Origin: a bacterium
Lineage (GTDB): Bacteria > Patescibacteriota > Saccharimonadia > Saccharimonadales > Saccharimonadaceae
DNA: 34,917 nucleotides
Reading direction: 5' to 3'
Assembly (NCBI GenBank): GCA_030452455.1
Contig: JAKDMF010000001.1
Span: 1 to 34,917, forward strand
Numbering within the stretch: the first letter of the stretch is position 1; every line of letters begins with the position of its first letter. This document shows positions 345-29,050 of this stretch, one piece after another. Made by a program: the position numbers and the translations under genes. The notes under the pieces are model-generated. The model was not told the origin of the DNA. It saw only the letters and a program-made list of their open reading frames with translations, and made no database searches.

Positions 345-1388
345 ATGGCAGATATAGATAGTGTACTAAATAAATTACTTGACGAGGCTCGCTCAGCTGA
401 TGAGCCGGCCGCAGTCCTAAAAAGCCCTGAACTCAAGGCTCTTTACAAGCAAATAGGTTCAATCGATCCCACCGAAAGAGCTGACTATGGCCGTCGGCTA
501 AACGACGCCAAAACCGAGCTTGAGCGGGTTGTCGCCGAGCGACTGGCTGAAATGACTGATGAATCTGTCGCGACGATCGACATCACGGCTCCATTCGACA
601 AGAACTCCGGCCGGCCAGATCTTTTACCGACTGACCAAGGCTCAATCCATCCATTGATGCAAGAAGTCGAAAAAGTTAGTGATATCTTTGGCCGAATGGG
701 ATTTCAGATCGAGCAGTCGCGTGAGCTAGATGATCAGTTTCACATGTTCGAAAGTCTTAATTTTCCCAAAGATCACCCGGCTCGTGATGACTACGATACA
801 TTCATGACCAAAGAAGCCGACGCCAATGGCGAAGCTTTGATTGCACCAGCTCATACCTCGACGATGCAATACAGAACTCTTAAAAAATACAAACATAAGC
901 TTGAAAATGGTGAACCGATTGCCGCGATCGTACCGGATCGCGTCTTTCGTAACGAAGATGTCGACGCTCGACACGAGCATACCTTTTACCAAGTCGAAGG
1001 CATCTACGTTTCCCGGGGCGTAAACGCTGGTATGTTGATAGCAACGCTTCAGAAGTTCCTAGAAGAGTACTATGGCAAGAAGCTTGAAGTCCGGGTAAAT
1101 CCGTTTTACTTTCCGTTTACCGAACCGAGCTTTGAGTTTGCTCTAAGTTGTCCGTTTTGTGGGGGTCAAAATACTGACTGTAAAGTTTGCTCCGGCGAAG
1201 GCTGGATTGAGCTACTCGGTTGTGGCATGATTCATCCCAACGTCTTGAAGCACGCTGATATTGACCCGAATGAGTACACTGGTTTTGCCTTTGGTTGCGG
1301 TATCGATCGATTAGTTATGATGAAGTATGGCATCGAAGATGTTCGCCATTTTCATAGCGGTAAATTAGACTTTCTGAAACAGTTCTAG
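345..1388 (+). CDS. pheS: Phenylalanine--tRNA ligase alpha subunit
   Basis: 347 aa. Class II aaRS motifs FPFTEPS, GWIELLGCGMIHPNVL and GFAFGCGIDRLVMMKYG are present, as is the Cys-rich knuckle CPFCGG..CKVCSG seen in Gram-positive-type PheS. Confidence 0.95.
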   Translation: MADIDSVLNKLLDEARSADEPAAVLKSPELKALYKQIGSIDPTERADYGRRLNDAKTELERVVAERLAEMTDESVATIDITAPFDKNSGRPDLLPTDQGSIHPLMQEVEKVSDIFGRMGFQIEQSRELDDQFHMFESLNFPKDHPARDDYDTFMTKEADANGEALIAPAHTSTMQYRTLKKYKHKLENGEPIAAIVPDRVFRNEDVDARHEHTFYQVEGIYVSRGVNAGMLIATLQKFLEEYYGKKLEVRVNPFYFPFTEPSFEFALSCPFCGGQNTDCKVCSGEGWIELLGCGMIHPNVLKHADIDPNEYTGFAFGCGIDRLVMMKYGIEDVRHFHSGKLDFLKQF

Positions 1389-2057: not shown

Positions 2058-2086
2058 TTGACATCGGCGCAAATTTAATAGATTAT
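2058..2086 (+). promoter_or_regulatory. Sigma70-type promoter TTGACA-17 nt-GATTAT for the AAA+ cassette
   Basis: TTGACA lies at 2058-2063, a 17-nt spacer follows, and GATTAT lies at 2081-2086. Downstream are SD GAGGAGAG at 2104-2111 and the ATG at 2117. Confidence 0.5.
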
Positions 2087-2116: not shown

Positions 2117-3376
2117 ATGCGTGATGAGGCGAAGTTTCTAGAAATATCTAATCCTAAAAACGAGGAGCAAGATAGGCTGCTGTCAGAACGCGAAAACGCC
2201 ATTAGCCAAATCGGTGGTATAGCCCTCGAAGGTTTGGCCAGAATAGACAAGCCGGAGTCTCATTTTCTCTCGGAGCAAGCCGAGCAGGTCAAAGAGCTAG
2301 TCGCCGGCCACGACGAGGACATAGACTCAATTATGAATGCGATCAGCGGTCAGGCATTTCGTGATTCATCCGAACCATATTCGATGCTTATAACTGGACC
2401 AGAAGGATCGGGTAAGACCGAAACCGCCCAAGCAATCTCTGAGGTGCTAGCGGAGGGAAAGCATATCCGAGTCGACTGCTCAATGTTCCGACCGGGAACA
2501 GATCCTGCCGCTGTCATGGCGATTAGCTTCATCGAGGGCCAGGGTAATTTCAATTTAAAAACTGGAGATCCAGCCGAAGACTCAGACGAGACAGACGGAG
2601 TTCCAGACGTAGTGATATTTGAAAATATTGAAACAGCCGACCAATCTTTCCATGACTATCTGTCTAGTGGCGCCATGAAAGATGGTAAATTCGTCATAAC
2701 TACTACCCAGGGCATGACAGCGATAACTGTATCAGACAGTCTATTTATATTTACTAGCCGGCTAGGAACCGGAGCTTATAGCGGCAGTGCGGGCTATAAA
2801 ATGAATGCTGGCATGTATCCAAAAACTGAGTCCGGCCACATGTCAAAAGCCGAAATTAAAGACGAATCTGATAAACAGATGAGCAAGATATTCGATGATG
2901 ATTTTCAGGATATGATCGGCCACAGGGTTTACTACGAATCACTTAGTGATGCTGATCTTGGCGACGTGCTGAGTAATTATGTGGCTAACTACGAGGGTTA
3001 CCAAAGGTACGGCATTGAGGTAAACCTACCAGACGAAATACGTGACGAGATCGTTAAAAGCGTCAACGAGAAAAAACGCAACGCTACGACAGTAGTCCGC
3101 CAATATAAAAGACTTATCGAACCTGACATATCGCGGATGGCGGCAAGCGGTAATATACCAAGCAATCACCAGGTGTTTATTGTTAAGGACGAAAACGGTG
3201 AATATGCGTGCTTCGGTAAACCGGATACTAATAAGTTAATCAATGAGCTCAATGTCGTCCGCAGCCAGTTCTACCCGCTTATTAATCGTGAAGAAGATTT
3301 AATCCAAGCTCTAGAAGACCAAGGCGTTGGATTTGACGAAAAAGGTAACCCAGTGCTGGATGAAGACTCGGTCTAG
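2117..3376 (+). CDS. Stand-alone Clp/Hsp100 D2-type AAA+ protein with degenerate catalytic motifs (likely a non-hydrolysing paralog)
   Basis: 419 aa, collinear with the next gene and with the D2 ring plus small domain of ClpB/ClpA/ClpC. Walker A GPEGSGKT is intact. The Walker B position reads VVIFEN (DE to EN, nt 2621-2626). Sensor-1 N is replaced by R (FTSRLG). The GYVG pore loop is replaced by EGQG. FRPEF..NR becomes FDDDF..DM. The sensor-2 Arg is replaced by Thr (NATTV). Confidence 0.8.
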   Translation: MRDEAKFLEISNPKNEEQDRLLSERENAISQIGGIALEGLARIDKPESHFLSEQAEQVKELVAGHDEDIDSIMNAISGQAFRDSSEPYSMLITGPEGSGKTETAQAISEVLAEGKHIRVDCSMFRPGTDPAAVMAISFIEGQGNFNLKTGDPAEDSDETDGVPDVVIFENIETADQSFHDYLSSGAMKDGKFVITTTQGMTAITVSDSLFIFTSRLGTGAYSGSAGYKMNAGMYPKTESGHMSKAEIKDESDKQMSKIFDDDFQDMIGHRVYYESLSDADLGDVLSNYVANYEGYQRYGIEVNLPDEIRDEIVKSVNEKKRNATTVVRQYKRLIEPDISRMAASGNIPSNHQVFIVKDENGEYACFGKPDTNKLINELNVVRSQFYPLINREEDLIQALEDQGVGFDEKGNPVLDEDSV

Positions 3377-3450
3377 TAGCTAGTCCGGGCCGATGCGCTA
3401 CAAAGTAGCATATTTGAAAATTAAAGAGTGATCAAGCTAGGAGTAGTAGT

Positions 3451-4977
3451 ATGGCTAATGCGCGTAATATAGAATCAGTAAATCATAAATTTCCACAGTT
3501 TTTGGCTAGCCCCGATGGACTGCCGGAAATGGAAAATCTAACCATGGCTGAGCGCAGGCGCCGACTCGGTGCCGGCGCACTCAAAAGTTTTGTACGAGCT
3601 GAGCAGTTAGAGCAAAGCCCTTTGCAGAATATCGAGAACACCCTAAAAAGTAAGTTGGTGGGACAAGACAAGGCCGTTGATGCGATTGTCGAAGCCTTGA
3701 CGCGTGAATCATTGCAAAACCCGAATCAGCCAATCGCTAATTTTATGTTTCTTGGTCCGTCTGGTGTCGGCAAGACCGAGACTGCCAAAATACTGGCTAA
3801 TCTAATTCATGAAGGCAACGATGAAGACTTTGATAATCTGATAAGAATCGACTGCTCGGACTACAAGGGCGGACACGAAATAGCTAACCTAACCGGCTCA
3901 CCCCTAGGTTACGTCGGCAGTGACAAAACACCTAAACTATCACGCTCGGCCGTTGAAGGCGGTGGCGGCAAGACAGTTATATTGTTTGACGAAATCGAAA
4001 AAGGCTCGACTGAACTATACGACCTGATGCTCCATATCATGGATGACGGAACACTTGAGACTATGGGAGAGACAAGCGAAAAAGTCTCTTTTAGTAACAG
4101 TATTATCATCATGACTAGTAATCTTGGCTCGGAAGAGATCAATCGGATCACCAGTGGTAAATCGACTGGTTTTAGTCCAAACGTCGACTCAAGCAAGGCT
4201 AATATTTCAGACAAGCAAATCGAAATCTCAGCCATGGATGCCATGGGCAAGATATTCCGACCCGAATTTATAAACCGAATCAGTAAAAACGTTATATACA
4301 ATGGATTTAACGATGAGCAACTTGGTGATATCGTCGACGTTCGAATCGACCGTGAAAACGAACGTTATCGTGATCATGGCTACAACTTGACTATTTCAGA
4401 GGCTCTGCGCGATCATGTGGTTAATATGACCGAGGACCGCCGTCAGTACAATGCCCGTACTGTGCTGCGTAATTACGAAAAGACCGTAGAGTCTGGCCTT
4501 GCCGAGCACTATATGGCTGGCACTATCCCAGTTGGTAGTGAGGTCTACGCCGACTTAACAGAGGCTGGCGATGCTACCTTCATGTATTCACGCAGCCCAG
4601 CTCTGGAGTATCAAGCTGGAGTTATGGCGCAAGCGCGTGATCAAAAGCGCTTGCAGGCTAAAGCCGAAATTGCCCGTAACCAAGCTTCACGGAATCAGGC
4701 TGAAGCTGAGGACTCGGAGTACGAGGAGTCGAGCTATAGCCAGTGGACTATCCACGGCGAGGCTGCAATCATCGGCACTCGTGTCATTACCGATTCTTTC
4801 TCGCTGGAGGAGATGTATGATGACGGAGAGATATCAGCAGTTCTAGCCTTTGATGTTGCTCGAGAAATGGGCTGGCTTAATGATAAATTATGGGTTTTGG
4901 ATAATGATAACCCCGAGTCCGACAAGAATTCTACGAACACCGATAAAGATGATAGCTCAACCGGAGAATCTGACTAA
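3451..4977 (+). CDS. Stand-alone ClpA/ClpB/ClpC D2-type AAA+ ATPase with all catalytic motifs intact
   Basis: 508 aa with Walker A FLGPSGVGKTE, Walker B ILFDEIEK, pore loop GYVG, sensor-1 MTSNLG, FRPEFINRI and sensor-2 NARTVLR. There is no N-domain, D1 ring or M-domain. About 130 aa form an acidic C-terminal extension. SD AGGAG is at 3439-3443. Confidence 0.85.
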   Translation: MANARNIESVNHKFPQFLASPDGLPEMENLTMAERRRRLGAGALKSFVRAEQLEQSPLQNIENTLKSKLVGQDKAVDAIVEALTRESLQNPNQPIANFMFLGPSGVGKTETAKILANLIHEGNDEDFDNLIRIDCSDYKGGHEIANLTGSPLGYVGSDKTPKLSRSAVEGGGGKTVILFDEIEKGSTELYDLMLHIMDDGTLETMGETSEKVSFSNSIIIMTSNLGSEEINRITSGKSTGFSPNVDSSKANISDKQIEISAMDAMGKIFRPEFINRISKNVIYNGFNDEQLGDIVDVRIDRENERYRDHGYNLTISEALRDHVVNMTEDRRQYNARTVLRNYEKTVESGLAEHYMAGTIPVGSEVYADLTEAGDATFMYSRSPALEYQAGVMAQARDQKRLQAKAEIARNQASRNQAEAEDSEYEESSYSQWTIHGEAAIIGTRVITDSFSLEEMYDDGEISAVLAFDVAREMGWLNDKLWVLDNDNPESDKNSTNTDKDDSSTGESD

Positions 4978-5818: not shown

Positions 5819-8362
5819 ATGAAGGTAAGTTTAAACCATATAAAAAACTATATTGATTTTGAGCTACCGCCGGTTGATGAGCTAGTCGACAGAATAAACC
5901 GACAGCTCGGTGGCGTTGAAGAAGTTATAGATTTAGCGTCTCGATACAAAGAGGCTCGGATCGTCGTTGTCGCTAGGTGTGAAAAGCATCCTGACGCTGA
6001 TCGACTTAGTGTCTGCTTGGTCGACGACGGTGGTGTAACCGATGGTGTCGAGCGTGATGAAGACGGTTTGATCCAGGTTGTTTGCGGTGCGCCGAATGTT
6101 CGCGGCGGCATGACGGCCGTTTGGCTGCCACCAAAATCAGTTGTACCGGCTAGCGCCGATGACGACGAGCCGTTTGTTCTGTCGGCTCGTGAGCTTCGAG
6201 GCGTCATGAGCCAGGGTATGCTAGCCGCTCCAGACGAGTTAGCTATTGGAGAGGGCCACGATGGAATATTAGAGATCACCGAGAATGATTTGCCACAAGC
6301 TGTAGCTTTTAACGATAAAATAATCGGTCGAAGCTTCGGCGAAGTGTTTGGGCTCGACGATACTATTATTGATATTGAAAACAAAATGTTCACGCATAGA
6401 CCTGATTTATTCGGACAGCTTGGTGTGGCACGTGAAATCTCGGCAATTATGGGTGGCACGACAGCAGCTGATCAGGACTTTGTCGATACCCATTTTATTA
6501 ATCCTGACGAATATTGGAAGATGCCTGATTTTGAAAAGGCAAGTGACCTTAACTTAGAAACGTTCAATGAAGCCGGCGATAAAGTGCCGCGGGTTATATT
6601 TGTTGCCATGAATAGCATCGAGGTAAAACCAAGTCCACTGTGGTTACAATGTGAGTTGGTCGCGATGGGTGCCAAGCCGATTAATAATATTGTCGATACC
6701 ACCAACTACCTTATGCTGACGACCGCTCAGCCAACTCACGCCTATGACTATGACAAGATTAGCGGACACAAAATCGGTGCACGTATGGCGCGTGACGGTG
6801 AAAAGATTAAACTCCTCAACGACAAAGAGTATGAGCTGACATCTGACGATATCGTCATAGCTGACGGCGATAAGCCGGTTGGCCTGGCTGGAGTCATGGG
6901 CGGTAGTGAGACGGAAGTCGATAAAAACACTAAAAATATCATCCTCGAAGTAGCGACATTTGATATGTATGCAGTCCGAAAATCTAGCATGAGACATGGG
7001 GTATTCACTGACGCACTAACACGATTCAACAAGGGTCAATCCCCACTGCAGAATAATAGAATTACTTACATGCTCATGAATCAGATCGGACAACTGTCTG
7101 GTGCATCACAGGCTAGCGATGTTTACGATATCTCTAGCCAAGATTGGAACCGCGTACTATCACTCAGCGGCGAGATTAAAGTTAGTCGTGACTTTGTCGT
7201 TAGTCGATTGGGTGTTGATTTGACACTGAGTCAGATAGGTAATTTACTTCGTCGAACTAATTTTACATCTTATCCGGATGAGGATGATGAAGATACACTT
7301 GTGATCGCAGCTCCTTTTTGGCGAACTGATATTAGTTTGCCCGAAGATATCGTCGAAGAAGTTGGTCGATTGTATGATTTTGGTAAACTACCACGCGAGC
7401 TGCCGGGTCGCAGTATCTCACCGAGCCAACTAAACCCAATCGTCGAACTGAAACAAGCTATCCGAAAGTTGCTGAGCCAGGCGGGTGCCAATGAGGTTTT
7501 AACCTATAGTTTCGTTCACCGGAATTTGATTCAGAAGACCGGCCAGTCAATCGATAGAGCTTATCAGCTAAGTAACGCCCTGAGCCCTGACTTACATTAC
7601 ATGCGCATAAGTCTGCAGCCGAGTATACTCGATAAAGTATATAGCAACATCCGTGATGGACACGATAAATTTGCGCTGTTTGAAATCGGCACCAGCCATG
7701 ACAAGAATAAGTTGGATGATAGTAAGCTTCCACTGGAGCCGAGTCGACTGGCGCTTGTTTATGTCAATAAGCACAAGCAGCCCGGGGCGGCCTACTATGA
7801 TGCCAAAAGAGCCTTGGATTTTCTAGCCAGTAAACTAGGTGTCCAATTAGATTACAAAAATACTAATATCGAAGATGACCAAATTGGCACTATGTTTGAG
7901 CCGAAACGACGGGCGGCTATCTTTGCCCGGAGCAGTGGAGAGCCGATCGGTGTCATCGGTGAGTATACAGCCGCTACTCGAAAAGCTTATAAGTTACCAG
8001 ACAGTAGCGCCGGTTTCGAAATTATACTCGATAAAATAGTCGCTGGTGCTACCGGCCTCCATGACTATCAAGTGCTCAGCCGCTACCCGTCGGCCGAAAG
8101 AGACGTTTGCTTTAAATTAGCTGACGAAATTGAGTATCAAAAACTAGTCGATGAAATCGATTCTCAGCTGAGCAATAAATCAATTCGCTATAGTGTTTCG
8201 CCGGTCGATATTTATCAAGCTGCGGGCGACTCAACTAAGAATATTACAGTCCGTATTAAGCTAACTCCGATCGAGCGTACGCTCAGCGGACAAGACATCG
8301 ACCAGATCGTAAACAGTACCGCAATTCAAGTCTGCCAAAAACTTGACGCCGAAATTGTCTAA
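5819..8362 (+). CDS. pheT: Phenylalanine--tRNA ligase beta subunit
   Basis: 847 aa. The N-terminal EMAP/tRNA-binding domain is present (CEKHPDADRLSVCLVDDG..VCGAPN), followed by a B3/4 region, a B5 region and a C-terminal anticodon-binding-like domain. Length and order are typical of bacterial PheT. Confidence 0.95.
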   Translation: MKVSLNHIKNYIDFELPPVDELVDRINRQLGGVEEVIDLASRYKEARIVVVARCEKHPDADRLSVCLVDDGGVTDGVERDEDGLIQVVCGAPNVRGGMTAVWLPPKSVVPASADDDEPFVLSARELRGVMSQGMLAAPDELAIGEGHDGILEITENDLPQAVAFNDKIIGRSFGEVFGLDDTIIDIENKMFTHRPDLFGQLGVAREISAIMGGTTAADQDFVDTHFINPDEYWKMPDFEKASDLNLETFNEAGDKVPRVIFVAMNSIEVKPSPLWLQCELVAMGAKPINNIVDTTNYLMLTTAQPTHAYDYDKISGHKIGARMARDGEKIKLLNDKEYELTSDDIVIADGDKPVGLAGVMGGSETEVDKNTKNIILEVATFDMYAVRKSSMRHGVFTDALTRFNKGQSPLQNNRITYMLMNQIGQLSGASQASDVYDISSQDWNRVLSLSGEIKVSRDFVVSRLGVDLTLSQIGNLLRRTNFTSYPDEDDEDTLVIAAPFWRTDISLPEDIVEEVGRLYDFGKLPRELPGRSISPSQLNPIVELKQAIRKLLSQAGANEVLTYSFVHRNLIQKTGQSIDRAYQLSNALSPDLHYMRISLQPSILDKVYSNIRDGHDKFALFEIGTSHDKNKLDDSKLPLEPSRLALVYVNKHKQPGAAYYDAKRALDFLASKLGVQLDYKNTNIEDDQIGTMFEPKRRAAIFARSSGEPIGVIGEYTAATRKAYKLPDSSAGFEIILDKIVAGATGLHDYQVLSRYPSAERDVCFKLADEIEYQKLVDEIDSQLSNKSIRYSVSPVDIYQAAGDSTKNITVRIKLTPIERTLSGQDIDQIVNSTAIQVCQKLDAEIV

Positions 8363-15972: not shown

Positions 15973-16785
15973 CTATTTGCCATCATCACCATAAAAAACC
16001 GTGAAGGCATCTTGTGGTGTTAGGTTGTGATAGAGCCTACCGTTACCACCATCCGGTGGCTGCTTGTAGAAGCAGAAGTCCGACGTCAGGTCGCCGTCCA
16101 TACCGTACCTAGTGACTGTCTCTAGCGACGGTACGAATGCCACATAGGCATAGCCATCAGCGTCAGTTACCATATACTCCACCACACCATGTCTGGTGTA
16201 GTCTTTTGAGTAATCGACATCAACATCAGAGAACAAATCGGAGTCATAGGCAAGTTGAAGCTCAGCCTGGCTGATGCTCATCTTGGCATAGGAAACGAGC
16301 GTGTAACCCATTTCCTCTAATGCCTCGCGATTTTTTCTGTCCGATGGTTCTTGTCGAGCCAGGAACCTGGGATCAAGCGAGTCAGGTACCCAGTAGTAAT
16401 CAGGTTCGATAACTAAGAGTTCGGACTCTGCCACTTGACCATAGGTATAGACAGTGAACAGACCTTGATTGTAGTTCTCGAGAGTTTGACCGTAGTTGTC
16501 GTCGAAGCTGCCTTCGGCCGAATCAATTGTCGGTGACTCAGTTGGCTCCGTTAACCATTCCGGTGACTCCTCGGGTTCGGAACTAGCCGGGCTAGGTGTG
16601 CTAGTGTCGACTGCGTCTGGAGATTGACTCTCCGGGCGGGTAGTTTTGGCGCTAGTAACGCAGCCGCTCAACACGAGCGCTAGGCAAGCTGCAATCGCAA
16701 TAACCAGACTGGCTAGTCGGATAGCGGACTTTGGTACGGAATTCATATTCATATCAATAACCACTCTCTGTAGGGTGCTTTGCAT
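15973..16785 (-). CDS. Acidic secreted lipoprotein, unknown function
   Basis: 270-aa ORF with a signal peptide and lipobox (LALVLSGC). A low-complexity S/P/E/T linker follows, then a D/E/Y-rich ~180-aa domain I do not recognise. The true start may be the internal Met at 16752. Confidence 0.6.
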   Translation of the reverse strand: MQSTLQRVVIDMNMNSVPKSAIRLASLVIAIAACLALVLSGCVTSAKTTRPESQSPDAVDTSTPSPASSEPEESPEWLTEPTESPTIDSAEGSFDDNYGQTLENYNQGLFTVYTYGQVAESELLVIEPDYYWVPDSLDPRFLARQEPSDRKNREALEEMGYTLVSYAKMSISQAELQLAYDSDLFSDVDVDYSKDYTRHGVVEYMVTDADGYAYVAFVPSLETVTRYGMDGDLTSDFCFYKQPPDGGNGRLYHNLTPQDAFTVFYGDDGK

Positions 16786-18005: not shown

Positions 18006-18869
18006 ATGAGTGGTCAATTAACCGTATCTCAGCTCAATGAGAAAGCAAACAAAATACGACAAGATATTATAAGGATGCTTGAAAATGCCGGTAGCGGTCA
18101 CAGTGCTGGGCCACTTGGGCTGGCCGACGTACTGACGGCTCTCTATTTTAATATTATGAATTTTCGAGCTAGTCAGCCAGAGTGGCCGGAGCGAGATGTT
18201 TTCTTCCTGTCTAACGGACATACTGTACCAGTTCAATATGCGGCGATGGCCGAGGCTGGCTTTTTTGAAGTCGATGAGCTGATGACGTTGCGTAAGTTTG
18301 GTAGTCGACTGCAGGGTCATCCGGAGCGCGAGCTATTACCAGGCCTCGAGAATACTAGTGGCCCACTTGGTAGTGGTTTGAGCCAGGCGGCTGGTTATGC
18401 CTACAGCTTGCAGTATCTTGATGACCAAAAGCACCGTTTCGTCTACTGCGTAACTGGTGATGGTGAGCTAAACGAGGGCAACATCTGGGAAGCAGCCATG
18501 TTTGCTGGTAAGTACAAGCTATCTCAACTGGTCGTCTTTGTCGATCGAAATAATATCCAAATTGATGGTACGACCGAGGACATCATGCCACTGGAAGACC
18601 TGCGCGGGAAGTGGGAGAGCTTTGGCTGGCACGTTCAGGAAATCGATGGCCATAATATCGAAAGCATTATCGACGCGGCAAGTATGGCCCGAGCCATTAC
18701 TAATAAACCGAGTGTCGTCATAACCCACACTATCCCGGGTAAGGGTGTCGACTTTATGGAGTATGACTATAAGTGGCACGGCGCGCCGCCTAATACTGAG
18801 CAAGCTCGTGAAGCTCTCAAAAAGCTCCGAACTCTCAACGGAAAAATAACATCAGGAGACGAAGCCTAA
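18006..18869 (+). CDS. Transketolase, N-terminal (thiamine-diphosphate-binding) subunit
   Basis: 287 aa with GSGHSAGPLG, GDGELNEGNIWEA and HTIPGKG. Its stop overlaps the next start (TAATG at 18867-18871). Confidence 0.92.
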   Translation: MSGQLTVSQLNEKANKIRQDIIRMLENAGSGHSAGPLGLADVLTALYFNIMNFRASQPEWPERDVFFLSNGHTVPVQYAAMAEAGFFEVDELMTLRKFGSRLQGHPERELLPGLENTSGPLGSGLSQAAGYAYSLQYLDDQKHRFVYCVTGDGELNEGNIWEAAMFAGKYKLSQLVVFVDRNNIQIDGTTEDIMPLEDLRGKWESFGWHVQEIDGHNIESIIDAASMARAITNKPSVVITHTIPGKGVDFMEYDYKWHGAPPNTEQAREALKKLRTLNGKITSGDEA

Positions 18870-19864
18870 TGACATACCATTTGCAAGATAATCTATTTGA
18901 TGAGGACGTTGCCCAGGAGCCGATTCGATCTGGTTTTGGCCGAGGCCTAAAAGCGGCTGGCGGCGACAATGAATCAATCGTGGCTCTCTGCGCCGATCTA
19001 ACTGACAGTACTAAAATGGGTGATTTCGCTGAAGCTTACCCGGAGCGATTTATCGAAATCGGTGTGGCTGAGCAAAACTTGGTCACGGTGGCTAGTGGGC
19101 TAGCTCGAGCTGGCAAAATACCATTCACATCAAGCTACGCCGCCTTTAGCCCGGGCCGTAACTGGGAACAAATCCGGACGACGATCGCTCTGAACAATCA
19201 GCCGGTCAAAGTCATCGGTAGCCACGCTGGTGTCAGTGTTGGTCCTGACGGCGCCACTCACCAGATGCTAGAAGATATCGCTCTAATGCGTGTCCTGCCG
19301 AACATGGTTGTTATCGCCCCGGGCGACTCAGTTGAGGCCGAGAAGGCCACTCGGGCCATAGCGACTAATGACAAGCCAAGCTATATGCGCCTGGCGCGTG
19401 AAAAGACACCAATATTTAGCACGGACGAATCGCCCTTTGAAATCGGCCAGGCCTATGTTCTAAAAGAGGGCTCTGATATCTCTCTTCTCGGTACCGGCAC
19501 GATGTCTTACCAGCTACTTGTCGCCGCGCGGCTACTAGTGGAGCGTGGTATATCGGCTGAGGTGATTCATGTTCCGACGATTAAGCCCATCGATGAAACG
19601 ACTATTATGACGAGCGTTCAAAAAACTGGCCGCGTCCTGACGGCTGAAGAAGCGCAGGCGGCCGGTGGTTTCGGCAGCGCTGTAGCCGAGGTTCTGAGCG
19701 AGAAAATGCCAGTCCCGATTCTACGCGTCGGCATGCAAGACCGGTTCGGCGAAAGTGGCGAGCCCGACCAGCTGCTAAAGGAGTTCGGTCTAACCGGTGA
19801 GGCTATCGCTGAAAAAGCCTATGACTTTGTTAAAAAAGTTCCTCGCTATAAAAAAGGCTACTAA
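18869..19864 (+). CDS. Transketolase, C-terminal (pyrimidine-binding) subunit
   Basis: 331 aa with FIEIGVAEQNLV, SHAGVSVGPDGATHQ and MRVLPNM. It is translationally coupled to the N-terminal subunit. Confidence 0.92.
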   Translation: MTYHLQDNLFDEDVAQEPIRSGFGRGLKAAGGDNESIVALCADLTDSTKMGDFAEAYPERFIEIGVAEQNLVTVASGLARAGKIPFTSSYAAFSPGRNWEQIRTTIALNNQPVKVIGSHAGVSVGPDGATHQMLEDIALMRVLPNMVVIAPGDSVEAEKATRAIATNDKPSYMRLAREKTPIFSTDESPFEIGQAYVLKEGSDISLLGTGTMSYQLLVAARLLVERGISAEVIHVPTIKPIDETTIMTSVQKTGRVLTAEEAQAAGGFGSAVAEVLSEKMPVPILRVGMQDRFGESGEPDQLLKEFGLTGEAIAEKAYDFVKKVPRYKKGY

Positions 19865-25781: not shown

Positions 25782-27194
25782 ATGACGATCAACGACATAC
25801 TCAGTAGTATTGAAGCTGGTAAAATGACGGCTCGTCAGGCGGTTGAGGCCGCTCTTAAAAAAGCCGACGAGACTAGCGAATACGCCGCTCTGCTTAGTCT
25901 GACGAGTGAACGAGCACTGAACCGAGCCGATGAAATTGATGCTAAGTTAGAAAAAGGTGAGGACGCTGGCCGCTTAGCCGGTGTACCATTTGTGGCTAAA
26001 GATAACTTCCTAGCGTTTGGCGCTCCGACGACAGCCGCTAGCAAGATGCTCGAGAACTTTAAAGCTCCGCTTCAGGCAACGGCAGTTGAAAAGCTGGAAC
26101 AAGCCGGCGCTATTTGTATCGGCAAAGCCAACCTTGATGCCTTTGCCCATGGCGGTAGTACCGAGAACTCCGCCTTTGGCCCAACTTCTAACGCTCACGA
26201 CAAAACGCGTGTCGCTGGCGGTAGTAGCGGTGGTTCAGCTGTCGCCACCGCCCTAGATGTCGTACCATTTACACTTGGTAGTGATACCGGCGGTTCAATT
26301 CGTCAGCCCGCTAGCTTTAACGGCGTGATTGGTGTGAAGCCAACTTACGGTACAGTTAGCCGCTACGGTGTGGTCGCTATGGCCAGTAGCACCGACACGG
26401 TTGGTTGTTTTGCTAAATCAGTCGATGACGCTGAGCTAGTTATGGAAATTATGAGTGGTCGGGATGACAAAGACATGACAACCCTAGGTGACGTTATGGA
26501 TTCCGCTAAGGCCGTAAAACCGGTTAAGAAAATCGGTGTGATAAGCGATTTTATGAATGGTGATGTGGACAACGAAGTTCTTAAAATCACTGAAGCTTAC
26601 GTCGAGAAAATGAAGGCCGCCGGCTATGAGGTTGAGCCAGTCTCGATGCCAATCATCAAGCACTCCCTGGCTATGTACTACATTATCGTGCCGGCTGAAG
26701 TCAGTAGCAACCTAGCTCGCTATGATGGTGTTCGCTATGGTCACCGAGCCGAAGGTATTAAGACTTTGGCTGAGCTCTACGGTAAGTCACGCGATGAAGG
26801 TTTCGTGACCGAGAACAAGCGCCGTATCATGATCGGTAGCTACGTACTGTCGAGTGGCTATTTCGACGCCTATTACATGAAAGCTCAAAAGGCTCGCACT
26901 AAACTAATTGATAAATATAAACAGCTGTTTGAGAGTTACGACCTGCTAGTAAGCCCGACCGCGCCAACTCCGGCTTTCAAGCTCGGTGCGACTGGCGATG
27001 ACCCGGTGCAGATGTATTTAGCCGATGCTATGGTAGTTGGCCCGAGTCTAGCTGGCTTGCCGGCCATCAGCGTGCCAGCTGGTGATACACCAGACGGTCT
27101 ACCAGTCGGAGTTCAGCTGATCGGCTGGCGCGAGACCGATCGGTCACTATTTGCTGTGGCGCGAAAAGTTGAGGAGGTGGCAAATGATAACTAG
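25782..27194 (+). CDS. gatA: Asp/Glu-tRNA(Asn/Gln) amidotransferase subunit A
   Basis: 470 aa with the amidase signature GGSSGGSAVA..GSDTGGSIRQPA. Confidence 0.95.
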   Translation: MTINDILSSIEAGKMTARQAVEAALKKADETSEYAALLSLTSERALNRADEIDAKLEKGEDAGRLAGVPFVAKDNFLAFGAPTTAASKMLENFKAPLQATAVEKLEQAGAICIGKANLDAFAHGGSTENSAFGPTSNAHDKTRVAGGSSGGSAVATALDVVPFTLGSDTGGSIRQPASFNGVIGVKPTYGTVSRYGVVAMASSTDTVGCFAKSVDDAELVMEIMSGRDDKDMTTLGDVMDSAKAVKPVKKIGVISDFMNGDVDNEVLKITEAYVEKMKAAGYEVEPVSMPIIKHSLAMYYIIVPAEVSSNLARYDGVRYGHRAEGIKTLAELYGKSRDEGFVTENKRRIMIGSYVLSSGYFDAYYMKAQKARTKLIDKYKQLFESYDLLVSPTAPTPAFKLGATGDDPVQMYLADAMVVGPSLAGLPAISVPAGDTPDGLPVGVQLIGWRETDRSLFAVARKVEEVANDN

Positions 27195-27606
27195 TAAAGT
27201 TGTATTTATTCTGGCGGCTATATTAATTATTGCGGTGCTGCTATTTTTGGTTATAATTCTAACTAAAAAATCACCGGCCCGACTCGATGTTGAGCGCTAT
27301 CGAATTGATTGGCTGAAGATCGAACAAAAATTAAAACGTGACGACGTTTCAAGCTACCATCTATGCGTTTTAAATGGCGACAAGTTGGTTGATCGAGCCC
27401 TAAAAGAGCGCGGCGTCAAAGGCGCGACGATGGGTGAGCGTATGAAAAATAGCAAAGATACTTGGACAAGCCGAAACAACATCTGGGGCGCCCATAAGCT
27501 ACGCAACCGGATTGCGCACGAGTCTGATGTTAGTGTTGGCTATGACGATGCTCGACGAGCCTTAGCTAGCTTCAAGCAGGCTTTGAAGGATCTAGGAGCG
27601 ATATAA
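27184..27606 (+). CDS. Membrane-anchored small protein with an RNxxxH (HEPN-like) motif, nested in the gatCAB operon
   Basis: 140 aa from the ATG at 27184, preceded by SD GAGGAGGTGG at 27171-27180. It overlaps the gatA end by 11 nt and ends 1 nt before gatB. It has an N-terminal TM helix (VVFILAAILIIAVLLFLVIIL) and a ~110-aa helical domain ending in WGAHKLRNRIAHE (RNRIAH at nt 27502-27519). Confidence 0.6.
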   Translation: MITSKVVFILAAILIIAVLLFLVIILTKKSPARLDVERYRIDWLKIEQKLKRDDVSSYHLCVLNGDKLVDRALKERGVKGATMGERMKNSKDTWTSRNNIWGAHKLRNRIAHESDVSVGYDDARRALASFKQALKDLGAI

Positions 27607-27607
27607 T

Positions 27608-29050
27608 ATGAATGATAAATATGAACTAACTATTGGCATTGAATGCCACGTCCAGCTAGCGACGAACAGCAAGCTATTTAGCTCGTCTAATAACGATGCG
27701 CGCGATAAAGAGCCAAATCTAAACGTTAATCCAGTCGACTTTGGTCTACCTGGTATGTTGCCGGTCCTAAACCGGGAAGCTATCAATCTAGCGATCCGGG
27801 CCGCTAAAGCGCTTAATTCATCAGTCGCCAAGCTGAGCCGCTTTGACCGGAAGCACTATTTTTATCCAGACTTACCGAAGGGTTACCAGACAACCCAGAT
27901 GTATCAACCGATTATTGAAGCCGGCTATGTTGACGTGCCACTTGATGTGGGTGACGACGTACGCGTTCGAATTCATCACGCCCACATTGAAGAAGACGCC
28001 GGTAAACTAACTCACTATTCAGACTATAGCCTGGTTGACCTTAACCGAGCCGGCACACCTTTAATCGAGATCGTCTCTGAGCCAGACATTCACAGCTCCG
28101 AACAAGCCCGAGCATACGCTTCAGAGCTTCATAAGTTAATGACTTATGCTGGCGTGACTCGAGGTGATTTATATCATGGCAATATGCGTTTTGATGTTAA
28201 TGTGTCTGTCGCCTTGAAAGGGTCTAGTGAGCTAGGTACCCGAGCCGAGGTCAAAAACCTTAATTCATTCCGAAGTGTCGAAAGAGCGGCTGAGTATGAA
28301 TTTAAGCGACAGGTTGAGCTACTGGAGGCTGGTCAATCGGTCGTTCAGGAAACACGTGGCTGGAACGACGACAAAGGTACGACAACTAGTCAGCGATCTA
28401 AAGAGGACGCCCAGGACTACCGCTACATGCCCGACCCGGACATACCTCCAGTCGTGCTGACAGATGATGATATTGAAAAAATTCAAAAACTGGTTCCAAT
28501 GCTGCCCGGACAGTACCGCGACAATTGGCGCGATCTTCAGCTTGATCGGTCGGTTATGCACGCCGTGCTCAGTAACTCTAGTCTAGCTGAAACACTTGAA
28601 GCTATTCGGATCGAGTCTGACAACAAGATAGTCAAGCGAGTCTTTAACTGGTTCGCTTCAGCCGGCGATTTCGACACTAGCGCCGTTGAGTCGGGGCTGG
28701 TCGGTCCACAGCGACTTAGCGAGCTGTCACAGATGGTTGGCGACAACAAATTGAGCTCAACCGGCGCTAAAGAAGTCTTCTTTGCTCTATTTGATGAGGC
28801 TAACACCGGCAAGCAGCCGGAAGATATAGCTCAGGCTATGAACCTACTGCAAAACAGCGATGAAGGTGAGATCGAACAGATTGTTGACGCAGTGCTGGCC
28901 GATCCAGCTTCGTCCCGATCAATCGACGACATCAAAGCCGGCAAAGACAAAGCGATCGGCTATCTTGTCGGTCAAGTTATGAAACAGTCGGCTGGCAAAG
29001 CAAATCCCGGCATGGCGCAGAGCCTAATTCGCAAAAAACTCGACACATAG
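27608..29050 (+). CDS. gatB: Asp/Glu-tRNA(Asn/Gln) amidotransferase subunit B
   Basis: 480 aa with IGIECHVQL, FDRKHYFYPDLPKGYQ, IEEDAGK and a C-terminal YqeY-like tail. Confidence 0.95.
   Translation: MNDKYELTIGIECHVQLATNSKLFSSSNNDARDKEPNLNVNPVDFGLPGMLPVLNREAINLAIRAAKALNSSVAKLSRFDRKHYFYPDLPKGYQTTQMYQPIIEAGYVDVPLDVGDDVRVRIHHAHIEEDAGKLTHYSDYSLVDLNRAGTPLIEIVSEPDIHSSEQARAYASELHKLMTYAGVTRGDLYHGNMRFDVNVSVALKGSSELGTRAEVKNLNSFRSVERAAEYEFKRQVELLEAGQSVVQETRGWNDDKGTTTSQRSKEDAQDYRYMPDPDIPPVVLTDDDIEKIQKLVPMLPGQYRDNWRDLQLDRSVMHAVLSNSSLAETLEAIRIESDNKIVKRVFNWFASAGDFDTSAVESGLVGPQRLSELSQMVGDNKLSSTGAKEVFFALFDEANTGKQPEDIAQAMNLLQNSDEGEIEQIVDAVLADPASSRSIDDIKAGKDKAIGYLVGQVMKQSAGKANPGMAQSLIRKKLDT

Follow-up and report, generated by a model that had tools for sequence, protein, structure and literature searches.

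Locus and gene arrangement

We analyzed a 34,917-nucleotide stretch of genomic DNA from a bacterium of the Saccharimonadaceae (assembly GCA_030452455.1, contig JAKDMF010000001.1, positions 1–34,917 of the forward strand; hereafter the window), concentrating on two tandem genes for AAA+ proteins, open reading frame (ORF) A and ORF B, which lie between pheS and pheT. The window is housekeeping chromosome of Saccharibacteria (TM7), and its PheS is 70–73% identical to the PheS of Nanosynbacter and other Saccharimonadales. Four genes occupy the pheS–pheT interval: a gene for a membrane protein (TM), A, B, and ORF C (Table 1). Both AAA+ genes were found at the positions that a preliminary description, made from the letters of the sequence, had given for them, and all the motif strings quoted there are present in the two proteins.

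The gaps separating A, B, C, and pheT measure 66–79 nt, strong Shine-Dalgarno sequences precede A (GAGGAG) and B (AGGAG), and a scan of the + strand from A to pheT revealed no terminator-like site; with these features the A-B-C arrangement appears operon-like. The promoter-like site upstream of A and the mirror site on the opposite strand are mere candidates, because the promoter and terminator scan returned no more sites in the region than in shuffled sequence.

A and B are paralogous single-ring D2-type proteins

BLASTP aligned A and B over ~380 collinear residues with 27% identity (E = 2e-32), a similarity far above chance, which bears out their earlier description as collinear tandem paralogues. 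B matched the Pfam families AAA_2 (PF07724; 6.7e-36, 124.3 bits, cut-off 27) and ClpB_D2-small (PF10431; 2.4e-8, 34.3 bits, cut-off 21.9), aligned to positions 552–847 only of the 853-position ClpB model (1.7e-64), and had its best solved relatives in the PDB in the D2 domains of ClpC (3.6e-54) and ClpB (1.7e-47). A scored 26.8 bits with AAA_2, marginally below the cut-off of 27. Despite this score, A is identified as an AAA_2 module by its match to B, by its alignment to positions 536–848 of the ClpB model (1.1e-11), and by its predicted structure: an AlphaFold2 model of A (predicted local distance difference test, pLDDT, 82; predicted template modeling score, pTM, 0.73) found its best Foldseek matches in ClpC D2 chains from ClpC/ClpP complexes (E = 5e-20), with ClpB D2 also matched. 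The D2-small lid of A gave no Pfam match; it is collinear with B through residue 366 and was modeled with pLDDT >90.

Searches of A and B with Pfam and NCBIfam profiles revealed no match to Clp_N, D1, the M-domain, or AAA_lid_9 in either protein. Together with the AAA_2, ClpB_D2-small, and ClpC/ClpB D2 matches, this agrees with the preliminary description of both as D2-only proteins lacking the N-domain, D1, and M-domain. The N-terminal region is short (~50–60 aa) and carries a conserved L-G-x-x-A-L motif of its own. At the C-terminus, A has a conserved helix of ~31 residues (371–401) that is not present in B. B ends in a tail of ~130 aa (residues ~380–508, window 4600–4977) that is hypervariable, with 22–36% identity among orthologues; conservation in it is confined to a small number of Trp, Tyr, and Asp residues. 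This tail is a feature of the B orthologues paired with A, and is not found in solitary members of the family.

Catalytic motifs are complete in B and largely lost in A

B is canonical at the Walker A Lys, the Walker B Asp-Glu, the pore aromatic residue, the sensor-1 Asn, the Arg finger, and the sensor-2 Arg (Table 1); as judged from its motifs, it has the full catalytic and pore equipment for ATP-driven threading. Of these catalytic positions, two are retained in A: the Walker A Lys and, at the pore position, an aromatic residue. The BLASTP and MAFFT alignments confirmed that A is degenerate at the Walker B Glu, at sensor-1, at both arginines of the FRPEFINR box, and at sensor-2, with Walker A kept. 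The earlier statement that A keeps only Walker A held for the motif itself, which is intact, but was too narrow, as the acidic residue of Walker B (Asp to Glu) and an [AV]-G-Y tip are kept as well. The register of the pore loop also required correction: BLASTP and two MAFFT alignments placed SFIE, and not EGQG, under the GYVG of B, with EGQG located three residues further on. In this region of A the flanking glycines are gone, and an aromatic-aliphatic pair, F138-I139, stays (F-I or F-V in all four A orthologues). In the model, the pair lies at the end of a helix (130–140) that is followed by an acidic loop (141–163; pLDDT 50–61 at 141–160), and the loop carrying the AGY tip (221–236) has pLDDT <50. 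The trans finger of Escherichia coli ClpB, R756, is what we take, by our own count back from sensor-2 R815, to be the second Arg of the FRPEFINR box; the loss of the finger in A is independent of which arginine is R756, because A lacks both.

This pattern predicts that A can bind nucleotide, given its intact Walker A and the acidic residue left in Walker B, and that it is unable to hydrolyze ATP, because the catalytic Glu is replaced by Asn, the sensor-1 Asn by Arg, and the sensor-2 Arg by Thr. It should likewise not activate a neighboring site, its Arg finger being gone, nor grip substrate in the canonical manner, its glycine-flanked pore loop being gone.

A protein that keeps nucleotide binding only has the hallmark of the structural tiers in two-ring AAA+ proteins, and A and B might accordingly form two stacked rings that rebuild the two-tier form of ClpA/B/C, A being a non-hydrolyzing assembly tier like NSF D2. 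The lineage-specific C-terminal extensions of both proteins could form the contact between such rings. However, A is of D2 type and not D1 (AAA_2; ClpB positions 536–848), it lacks an Arg finger for a homomeric ring, and the P-loop tips of A and B would face the same way in the stack; none of the analyses pointed to stacking, and we consider this arrangement improbable.

Table 1 Genes of the pheS–pheT interval, promoter-like sites, and motifs of A and B, with positions in the window.
Feature	Position	Strand	Remark
pheS	345–1388	+	Left flank of the cassette
TM, membrane protein, 189 aa	1385–1954	−	Divergent from A; syntenic with the cassette
Mirror promoter-like site	2064–2036	−	Faces the divergent TM gene; candidate only
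Promoter-like site TTGACA-17-GATTAT	2058–2086	+	30 nt upstream of A; candidate only
ORF A, 419 aa	2117–3376	+	Degenerate single-ring Hsp100-D2-type AAA+; pseudo-ATPase candidate
A Walker A GPEGSGKT, residues 94–101 (K100/T101)	2396–2419	+	Intact
A SFIE, S137–E140	2525–2536	+	Under the B pore loop GYVG (BLASTP and two MAFFT alignments)
A Walker B VVIFENIE, residues 165–172	2609–2632	+	Degenerate; Asp to Glu, catalytic Glu to Asn
A sensor-1 position FTSR, residues 212–215	2750–2761	+	Asn to Arg
A tip A225-G-Y227	2789–2797	+	Disordered loop; under the ClpC VGF ClpP-docking tripeptide
A FDDDFQDM in place of FRPEFINR, residues 259–266	2891–2914	+	Both Arg gone, the trans-acting Arg finger among them
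A NATTV in place of NARTV/GARP, residues 322–326	3080–3094	+	Sensor-2 Arg to Thr
ORF B, 508 aa	3451–4977	+	Catalytically intact single-ring Hsp100-D2-type AAA+
B Walker A GPSGVGKT, residues 102–109	3754–3777	+	
B pore loop GYVG, residues 153–156	3907–3918	+	
B Walker B ILFDEIEK, residues 177–184	3979–4002	+	
B sensor-1 MTSN, residues 221–224	4111–4122	+	
B tip T239-G-F241	4165–4173	+	Under the ClpC VGF ClpP-docking tripeptide
B Arg-finger box FRPEFINR, residues 269–276	4255–4278	+	
B sensor-2 NARTV, residues 334–338	4450–4464	+	
ORF C, 231 aa	5057–5752	+	Acidic; no recognizable family
pheT	5819–8362	+	Right flank of the cassette

Conservation and selection on A

For the A family we aligned A with P0002, P0004, and an uncatalogued orthologue of 416 aa from L001 (an 873-kb contig of a metagenome-assembled genome in ENA), which are 47–71% identical to A. 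All four orthologues carry GPEG[ST]GKT, FEN[IV]E, TSR, and NATTVV and lack the Arg finger, and G226 and Y227 of the tip are invariant among them. Comparison of the window with L001 and with L002, a Logan contig, revealed a number of nonsynonymous substitutions per site (dN) of 0.19–0.20 for A, the same as for PheT (0.19–0.20), and of 0.34–0.38 for B; the corresponding synonymous value (dS) was saturated, so that for A only dN can be compared with the neighboring genes. Between the same lineages the AAA+ core was 73–79% identical in A and 68–72% identical in B.

These comparisons indicate that A is selected in its degenerate state and is not decaying, because the degenerate motifs are identical in four orthologues and A matches PheT in dN, at half the value for B. 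The invariance of the motifs at this level of divergence, the low dN, and a core more conserved than that of B mark the motif loss as a kept state. That several catalytic motifs are gone would by itself be compatible with a functionless duplicate in decay, yet the reading frame is intact in four lineages, the degenerate motifs do not vary, dN matches that of a housekeeping neighbor at saturated dS, and the AlphaFold2 model of A is confident; a pseudogene is thus extremely improbable, and we regard this reading as effectively ruled out by the conservation data.

The A family is small. Besides A itself, only P0002, P0003, and P0004 were found as clusters among 5.8 billion, which with the L001 orthologue makes five proteins, and in a set of 1.84 billion representatives the whole family falls into a single cluster at 50% identity. 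A scan of JGI metagenomes for A yielded one match, of 21% identity, which was not used.

Origin of A

A hidden Markov model of the A family, searched against the 1.84 billion representatives, found its best match outside the family in B's own cluster (5e-37). BLAST from A gave 130 bits for P0012 versus 115 bits for B, so that by this measure A is no closer to B than to other members of the wider family. In a neighbor-joining tree (100 sequences, 342 columns, 100 bootstraps), the A clade formed a long branch inside the subclade of B, with a bootstrap value of at most 5% for its placement and at most 18% for the relevant nodes. The preliminary description had proposed a phylogeny as a check on duplication of the pair in situ; a placement of the two as sisters received no support in the tree, which speaks neither for nor against such a duplication of B. 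A likely arose by duplication within this lineage, as far as can be judged from these sequence relationships. Fission of a two-ring Clp protein, with A as the former D1, was ruled out because A is of D2 type.

Synteny of the cassette and exchange of ORF C

L001 and L002, both Saccharibacteria contigs with pheS likewise at the left flank, preserve the gene order TM–A–B–C–pheT, and the B–C–pheT part is also present in a further contig, L091. Wherever a contig covers both A and B (window, L001, and L002), the two are adjacent. The TM protein is 69–72% identical at the same position in L001 and L002; it had no confident family match in Pfam or NCBIfam, and nothing was found for it in PADLOC or PHROGs. 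ORF C directly follows B throughout this clade and is syntenic in L001, L002, and L091. Searches of Pfam, NCBIfam, PADLOC, and PHROGs gave no match for C, and three homologues only were found; its AlphaFold2 model, built from a four-sequence alignment, had a pLDDT of 47 and was too poor to be used.

The C gene of L091 (1433–2200) is 81–89% identical to that of the window in nucleotides and 90% in amino acids, with a dN of 0.05 and a dS of 0.94. The flanking B and pheT of L091 are nearer to those of L002 (94% in the B core) and just 45–81% identical to those of the window. Because C of L091 thus resembles the window while its B and pheT resemble L002, C was evidently recombined singly: by these comparisons the C gene alone is mosaic, and recombination has exchanged at least two divergent types of allele among the lineages.

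We also surveyed the pheS–pheT gap in 80 GTDB Saccharibacteria loci around pheS (L011–L090). None of the 80 had A, B, or C in the pheS–pheT region, and the gap in these other Saccharibacteria ranged from 0 to ~8 kb. The two genes are adjacent in L020, L032, L079, L081, and L083; elsewhere 2.5–8 kb of unrelated cargo was present, including CYTH-like, HIT-like, oxidoreductase, and hydrolase genes (e.g., L024:10044–14117 and L074:10044–15901). The GC content of the cassette matches that of its flanks, and no integrase, transposase, or tRNA gene was found.

The variability of this gap and the absence of the cassette from all the surveyed GTDB loci would fit a view of A-B-C as an accessory island, possibly one that serves phage defense or conflict, in place of a function in core proteostasis, as would the exchange of C between lineages, the hypervariable tail of B, and the matches of B to the PADLOC models DolB (4e-26) and PDC-M37B (3e-28). 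However, these matches cover the generic AAA_2 core only and are far weaker than those to ClpB (1.7e-64) and ClpC (3.6e-54), C and the TM protein match no defense model, and neither mobile-element genes nor a shift in GC content mark the cassette; moreover, related intact genes lie in a housekeeping neighborhood (TsaE–TsaD–RNase Y–NUDIX). We therefore judge an accessory island of this kind to be quite unlikely.

A wider single-ring family with a predicted ClpP-docking tip

Single-ring, D2-only proteins of ~400–440 aa make up the sizeable family in which A and B are placed. The members that carry names come from Saccharibacteria/Saccharimonadales, and their public label is only "AAA family ATPase". 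Several relatives are solitary and lie in the TsaE–TsaD–RNase Y–NUDIX neighborhood. In a survey of 84 single-ring representatives, 78 have G-F at the column of the ClpC tripeptide VGF, and the preceding residue is I, L, or V in 54 of the 84. VGF is the tip of the ClpP-binding loop of ClpC (bioRxiv 10.1101/2022.09.15.508104). B and A have T-G-F and A-G-Y, respectively, at this column, with Thr and Ala as non-canonical first residues relative to the [I/L/V]-G-[F/L] tripeptide that ClpP-partner unfoldases carry on a flexible loop between sensor-1 and the Arg-finger box, and the tip loop is deleted in a ClpB-type D2 included in the alignment. A clpP gene is reported for the Saccharibacterium TM7x (bioRxiv 10.1101/2022.03.25.485537); none lies in the 35-kb window. 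The conservation of the tip suggests that members of the family may be ClpP partners.

Four intact members (P0137, P0139, P0146, and P0165) have a C-terminal hydrophobic stretch followed by basic residues (e.g., ...AAGVLAAGVTSELIGSRRSRRR), and part of the family may thus be membrane-tethered through a C-terminal anchor.

Degenerate members recur in the family

Seventy-nine of the 84 representatives are canonical at all seven catalytic positions. Two others, P0206 and P0267, deviate solely by a conservative Asp-to-Glu replacement in Walker B. In the remaining three, P0134, P0163, and P0245, the catalytic Glu and the sensor-2 Arg have been lost, whereas the Lys of Walker A and the x-G-F tip are still there. 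The Arg finger is gone in two of these three (P0134 and P0163), the pore residue is gone in the same two and is Phe in P0245, and none of the three has a glycine-flanked loop. The degenerate members apparently arose separately, because the best matches of each are intact proteins and never another degenerate one.

P0163 forms part of a second, apparently independent tandem pair (L094:1800–4289; GCA_039929525.1; MEO7904685.1 and MEO7904686.1), in which the intact P0132 is immediately followed by the degenerate P0163; the order is the reverse of that of A and B, with the intact copy upstream and the degenerate copy downstream. The contig is from Saccharimonadales and represents the RNase Y–NUDIX locus, with the order NUDIX, a 217-aa gene, P0132, P0163, and a 195-aa gene. 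Since L096 (5001–6263) has a single intact gene between the same kinds of flanking genes, comparison of the two loci indicates that the P0132/P0163 pair was made by duplication in situ.

That similar residues were lost repeatedly, with Walker A and the x-G-F tip kept each time, argues for a defined functional state and against random decay, and such a state gives clear biochemical predictions.

A as a candidate regulatory subunit of B

We propose that B is an active single-ring ClpC-D2-like unfoldase and that A is a paralogue fixed as a nucleotide-binding, non-hydrolyzing subunit of the B ring, a reading to which we give an even chance. A role of A as regulatory partner of B is plausible, with support from linkage, selection, and recurrence. 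B would thread substrates, probably into ClpP, by way of its T-G-F-tipped loop. A would bind ATP without turnover and enter or cap the B ring as a non-firing subunit; there it would modulate ring assembly, the rate of ATP hydrolysis, or docking to ClpP, and the power strokes would come from B-B interfaces. A strictly alternating A/B ring seems unlikely, because every B site would then be without its trans arginine, and a sub-stoichiometric share of A or a B-B-rich arrangement would be more plausible. Mixed rings with dead subunits are feasible in principle, because ClpX hexamers joined covalently remain functional when few of their subunits are active, as Martin, Baker and Sauer reportedly found in 2005. 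C is a candidate adaptor or substrate, since it is always beside B, has no recognizable family, has been exchanged singly, and adjoins the hypervariable tail of B.

Several observations weigh against this proposal. Lacking an Arg finger, A would cripple an abutting B site, and the benefit of co-assembly is not obvious. Most intact members of the family are solitary, and the degenerate P0134 (L093:6001–7254, MDB5187042.1) and P0245 (L095:1745–2920) are without an intact neighbor in the flanking DNA covered. The most divergent A orthologue, P0004 (47%; L092:27–1244), has no B downstream; only 26 bases are known upstream of it, and an upstream partner is possible because the contig begins there. 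The T-G-F tip, present in three of the four B orthologues, is less hydrophobic than the canonical I/L/V-G-F. The tiny A family had no relatives among 185,579 GTDB species representatives, and a sister relationship between A and B finds no support in the tree. In the place of B and C, P0004 is followed by two small acidic ORFs on the opposite strand (L092:1384–2239).

The degenerate genes that have no intact copy next to them within the DNA covered (P0134, P0245, and, on the downstream side, P0004) are also what would be expected if A acts alone, as an ATP-binding, non-hydrolyzing scaffold, e.g., a static ring or oligomer that docks ClpP via [AV]-G-Y or that holds or delivers clients, with B a mere neighbor in an ordinary unfoldase job. 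The invariant G-Y tip of the A orthologues, the Shine-Dalgarno sequence of A's own, and its conserved C-terminal helix (371–401), not found in B, speak in the same direction. This explanation is a serious contender and still unlikely in our view, given that A and B are adjacent in every contig covering both, that P0163 likewise stands in tandem with an intact copy, and that an all-A ring would have no Arg fingers to stabilize its nucleotide-dependent interfaces.

Extending the proposal of A as a non-firing subunit of the B ring to the group as a whole, we tentatively suggest that Saccharibacteria possess a minimal ClpC-D2-only unfoldase, probably docked to ClpP, and that they have more than once evolved a separate, ATP-locked dead subunit stripped of everything but nucleotide binding and the docking tip. 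Co-assembly of this subunit with the active paralogue would set stoichiometry, ATPase rate, or ClpP engagement. Regulation of an Hsp100 machine by a pseudo-ATPase paralogue dedicated to it would be a first, and the swappable C would be a specificity factor. This wider scheme we hold to be possible, and clearly less probable than the pairing of A with B itself. The single-ring family may be the main regulated unfoldase of the ultra-small, host-dependent Saccharibacteria.

Other genes of the window

The window further encodes PheT, thioredoxin-reductase-like enzymes, RelA/SpoT, GAPDH, pentose-phosphate enzymes, UvrB, GatA/GatB, and DnaE. Between gatA (25782–27194) and gatB (27608–29050) lies an ORF of 151 aa with a TTG start (27151–27606, + strand) that overlaps the end of gatA. 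An ORF of 270 aa (15973–16785, − strand) had no Pfam match. Transketolase is split into two genes, for the N-terminal half (18006–18869) and the C-terminal half (18869–19864), with base 18869 common to both.

Comparison with known systems

The D2 ring of ClpC/ClpE is the closest known system by sequence and fold: it provides the best sequence matches of B and the best structural matches of A, B has all the D2 motifs, and x-G-F occupies the VGF position. A and B differ from ClpC/ClpE in lacking the N-domain, D1, and M-domain, hence in forming a single ring, and in having an N-terminal region of their own with L-G-x-x-A-L. By architecture, ClpX and Skd3 are closest. ClpX, a single ring with IGF loops, resembles them in its one AAA_2 module with a D2-small-type lid, its tripeptide-tipped loop, and a likely partnership with ClpP; it differs in its zinc-binding N-domain, which A and B lack, and by sequence the family groups with the D2 of ClpC/ClpB. 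Skd3 (human CLPB), which combines ankyrin repeats with a D2-type ring, is likewise a single Hsp100 D2 ring without D1, whereas A and B have no ankyrin domain and the match to Skd3 in the PDB (1.6e-27) is weaker than those to ClpC and ClpB. We know of no separately encoded dead paralogue of Skd3.

Assignment to several established families was tried and rejected. For the ClpB (TIGR03346) and ClpA (TIGR02639) equivalogs, B scored 218.6 bits versus 1232 and 183.6 versus 993, respectively, and A scored 43.9 and 40.5. The two rings and the N-domain that mark these families and ClpC, and the M-domain of ClpB and ClpC, were likewise not found in A or B, which excludes them from ClpC as well. The ClpX model NF003745 gave 16.8 bits versus a cut-off of 359, and there was no match to zf-C4_ClpX. 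The Torsin family PF06309 gave 16.5 bits for B versus a cut-off of 27 (E = 0.009). The match to DolB of the Dodola system covered only positions 122–282 of 375, that is, the AAA_2 core, and neither C nor TM showed a match of the DolA (DUF6414) type; PDC-M37B shares only the generic AAA_2 core. In the literature we found no single-ring Clp or ClpC-D2 protein and no pseudo-ATPase described for Saccharibacteria or the Candidate Phyla Radiation (CPR), and no separately encoded Hsp100 pseudo-ATPase. ClpI of Actinomycetota is double-ringed and intact.

As a pairing, A and B especially resemble Torsin and its cofactors. Torsin is a Clp-D2-like AAA+ protein, and LAP1/LULL1 is a degenerate AAA+-like partner that cannot bind nucleotide and donates the Arg finger that Torsin lacks. 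Both cases join a Clp-D2-related ATPase with a separately encoded degenerate partner, but the polarity is opposite: the dead A keeps Walker A and is without an Arg finger, and the active B is complete. In Pex1/Pex6 D1, clamp-loader delta/delta-prime, FtsH/FtsHi, and the plastid and cyanobacterial ClpP/ClpR, too, a duplicated copy without catalysis is kept as a structural or regulatory subunit; these share with A and B the pairing of active and dead paralogues, and the ClpR case lies within the Clp machines. Co-assembly has been demonstrated in those systems and is proposed here for A and B; to our knowledge, none of them involves an Hsp100 D2 module that stands on a polypeptide of its own. The A/B pair adds a variation to the familiar picture of active/inactive AAA+ pairs. 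Rings of ClpX and Hsp104 that were engineered by doping with dead subunits have served to probe the number of firing subunits and probabilistic versus sequential firing; if A and B co-assemble, they would be a natural, separately encoded counterpart of these doped-ring experiments.

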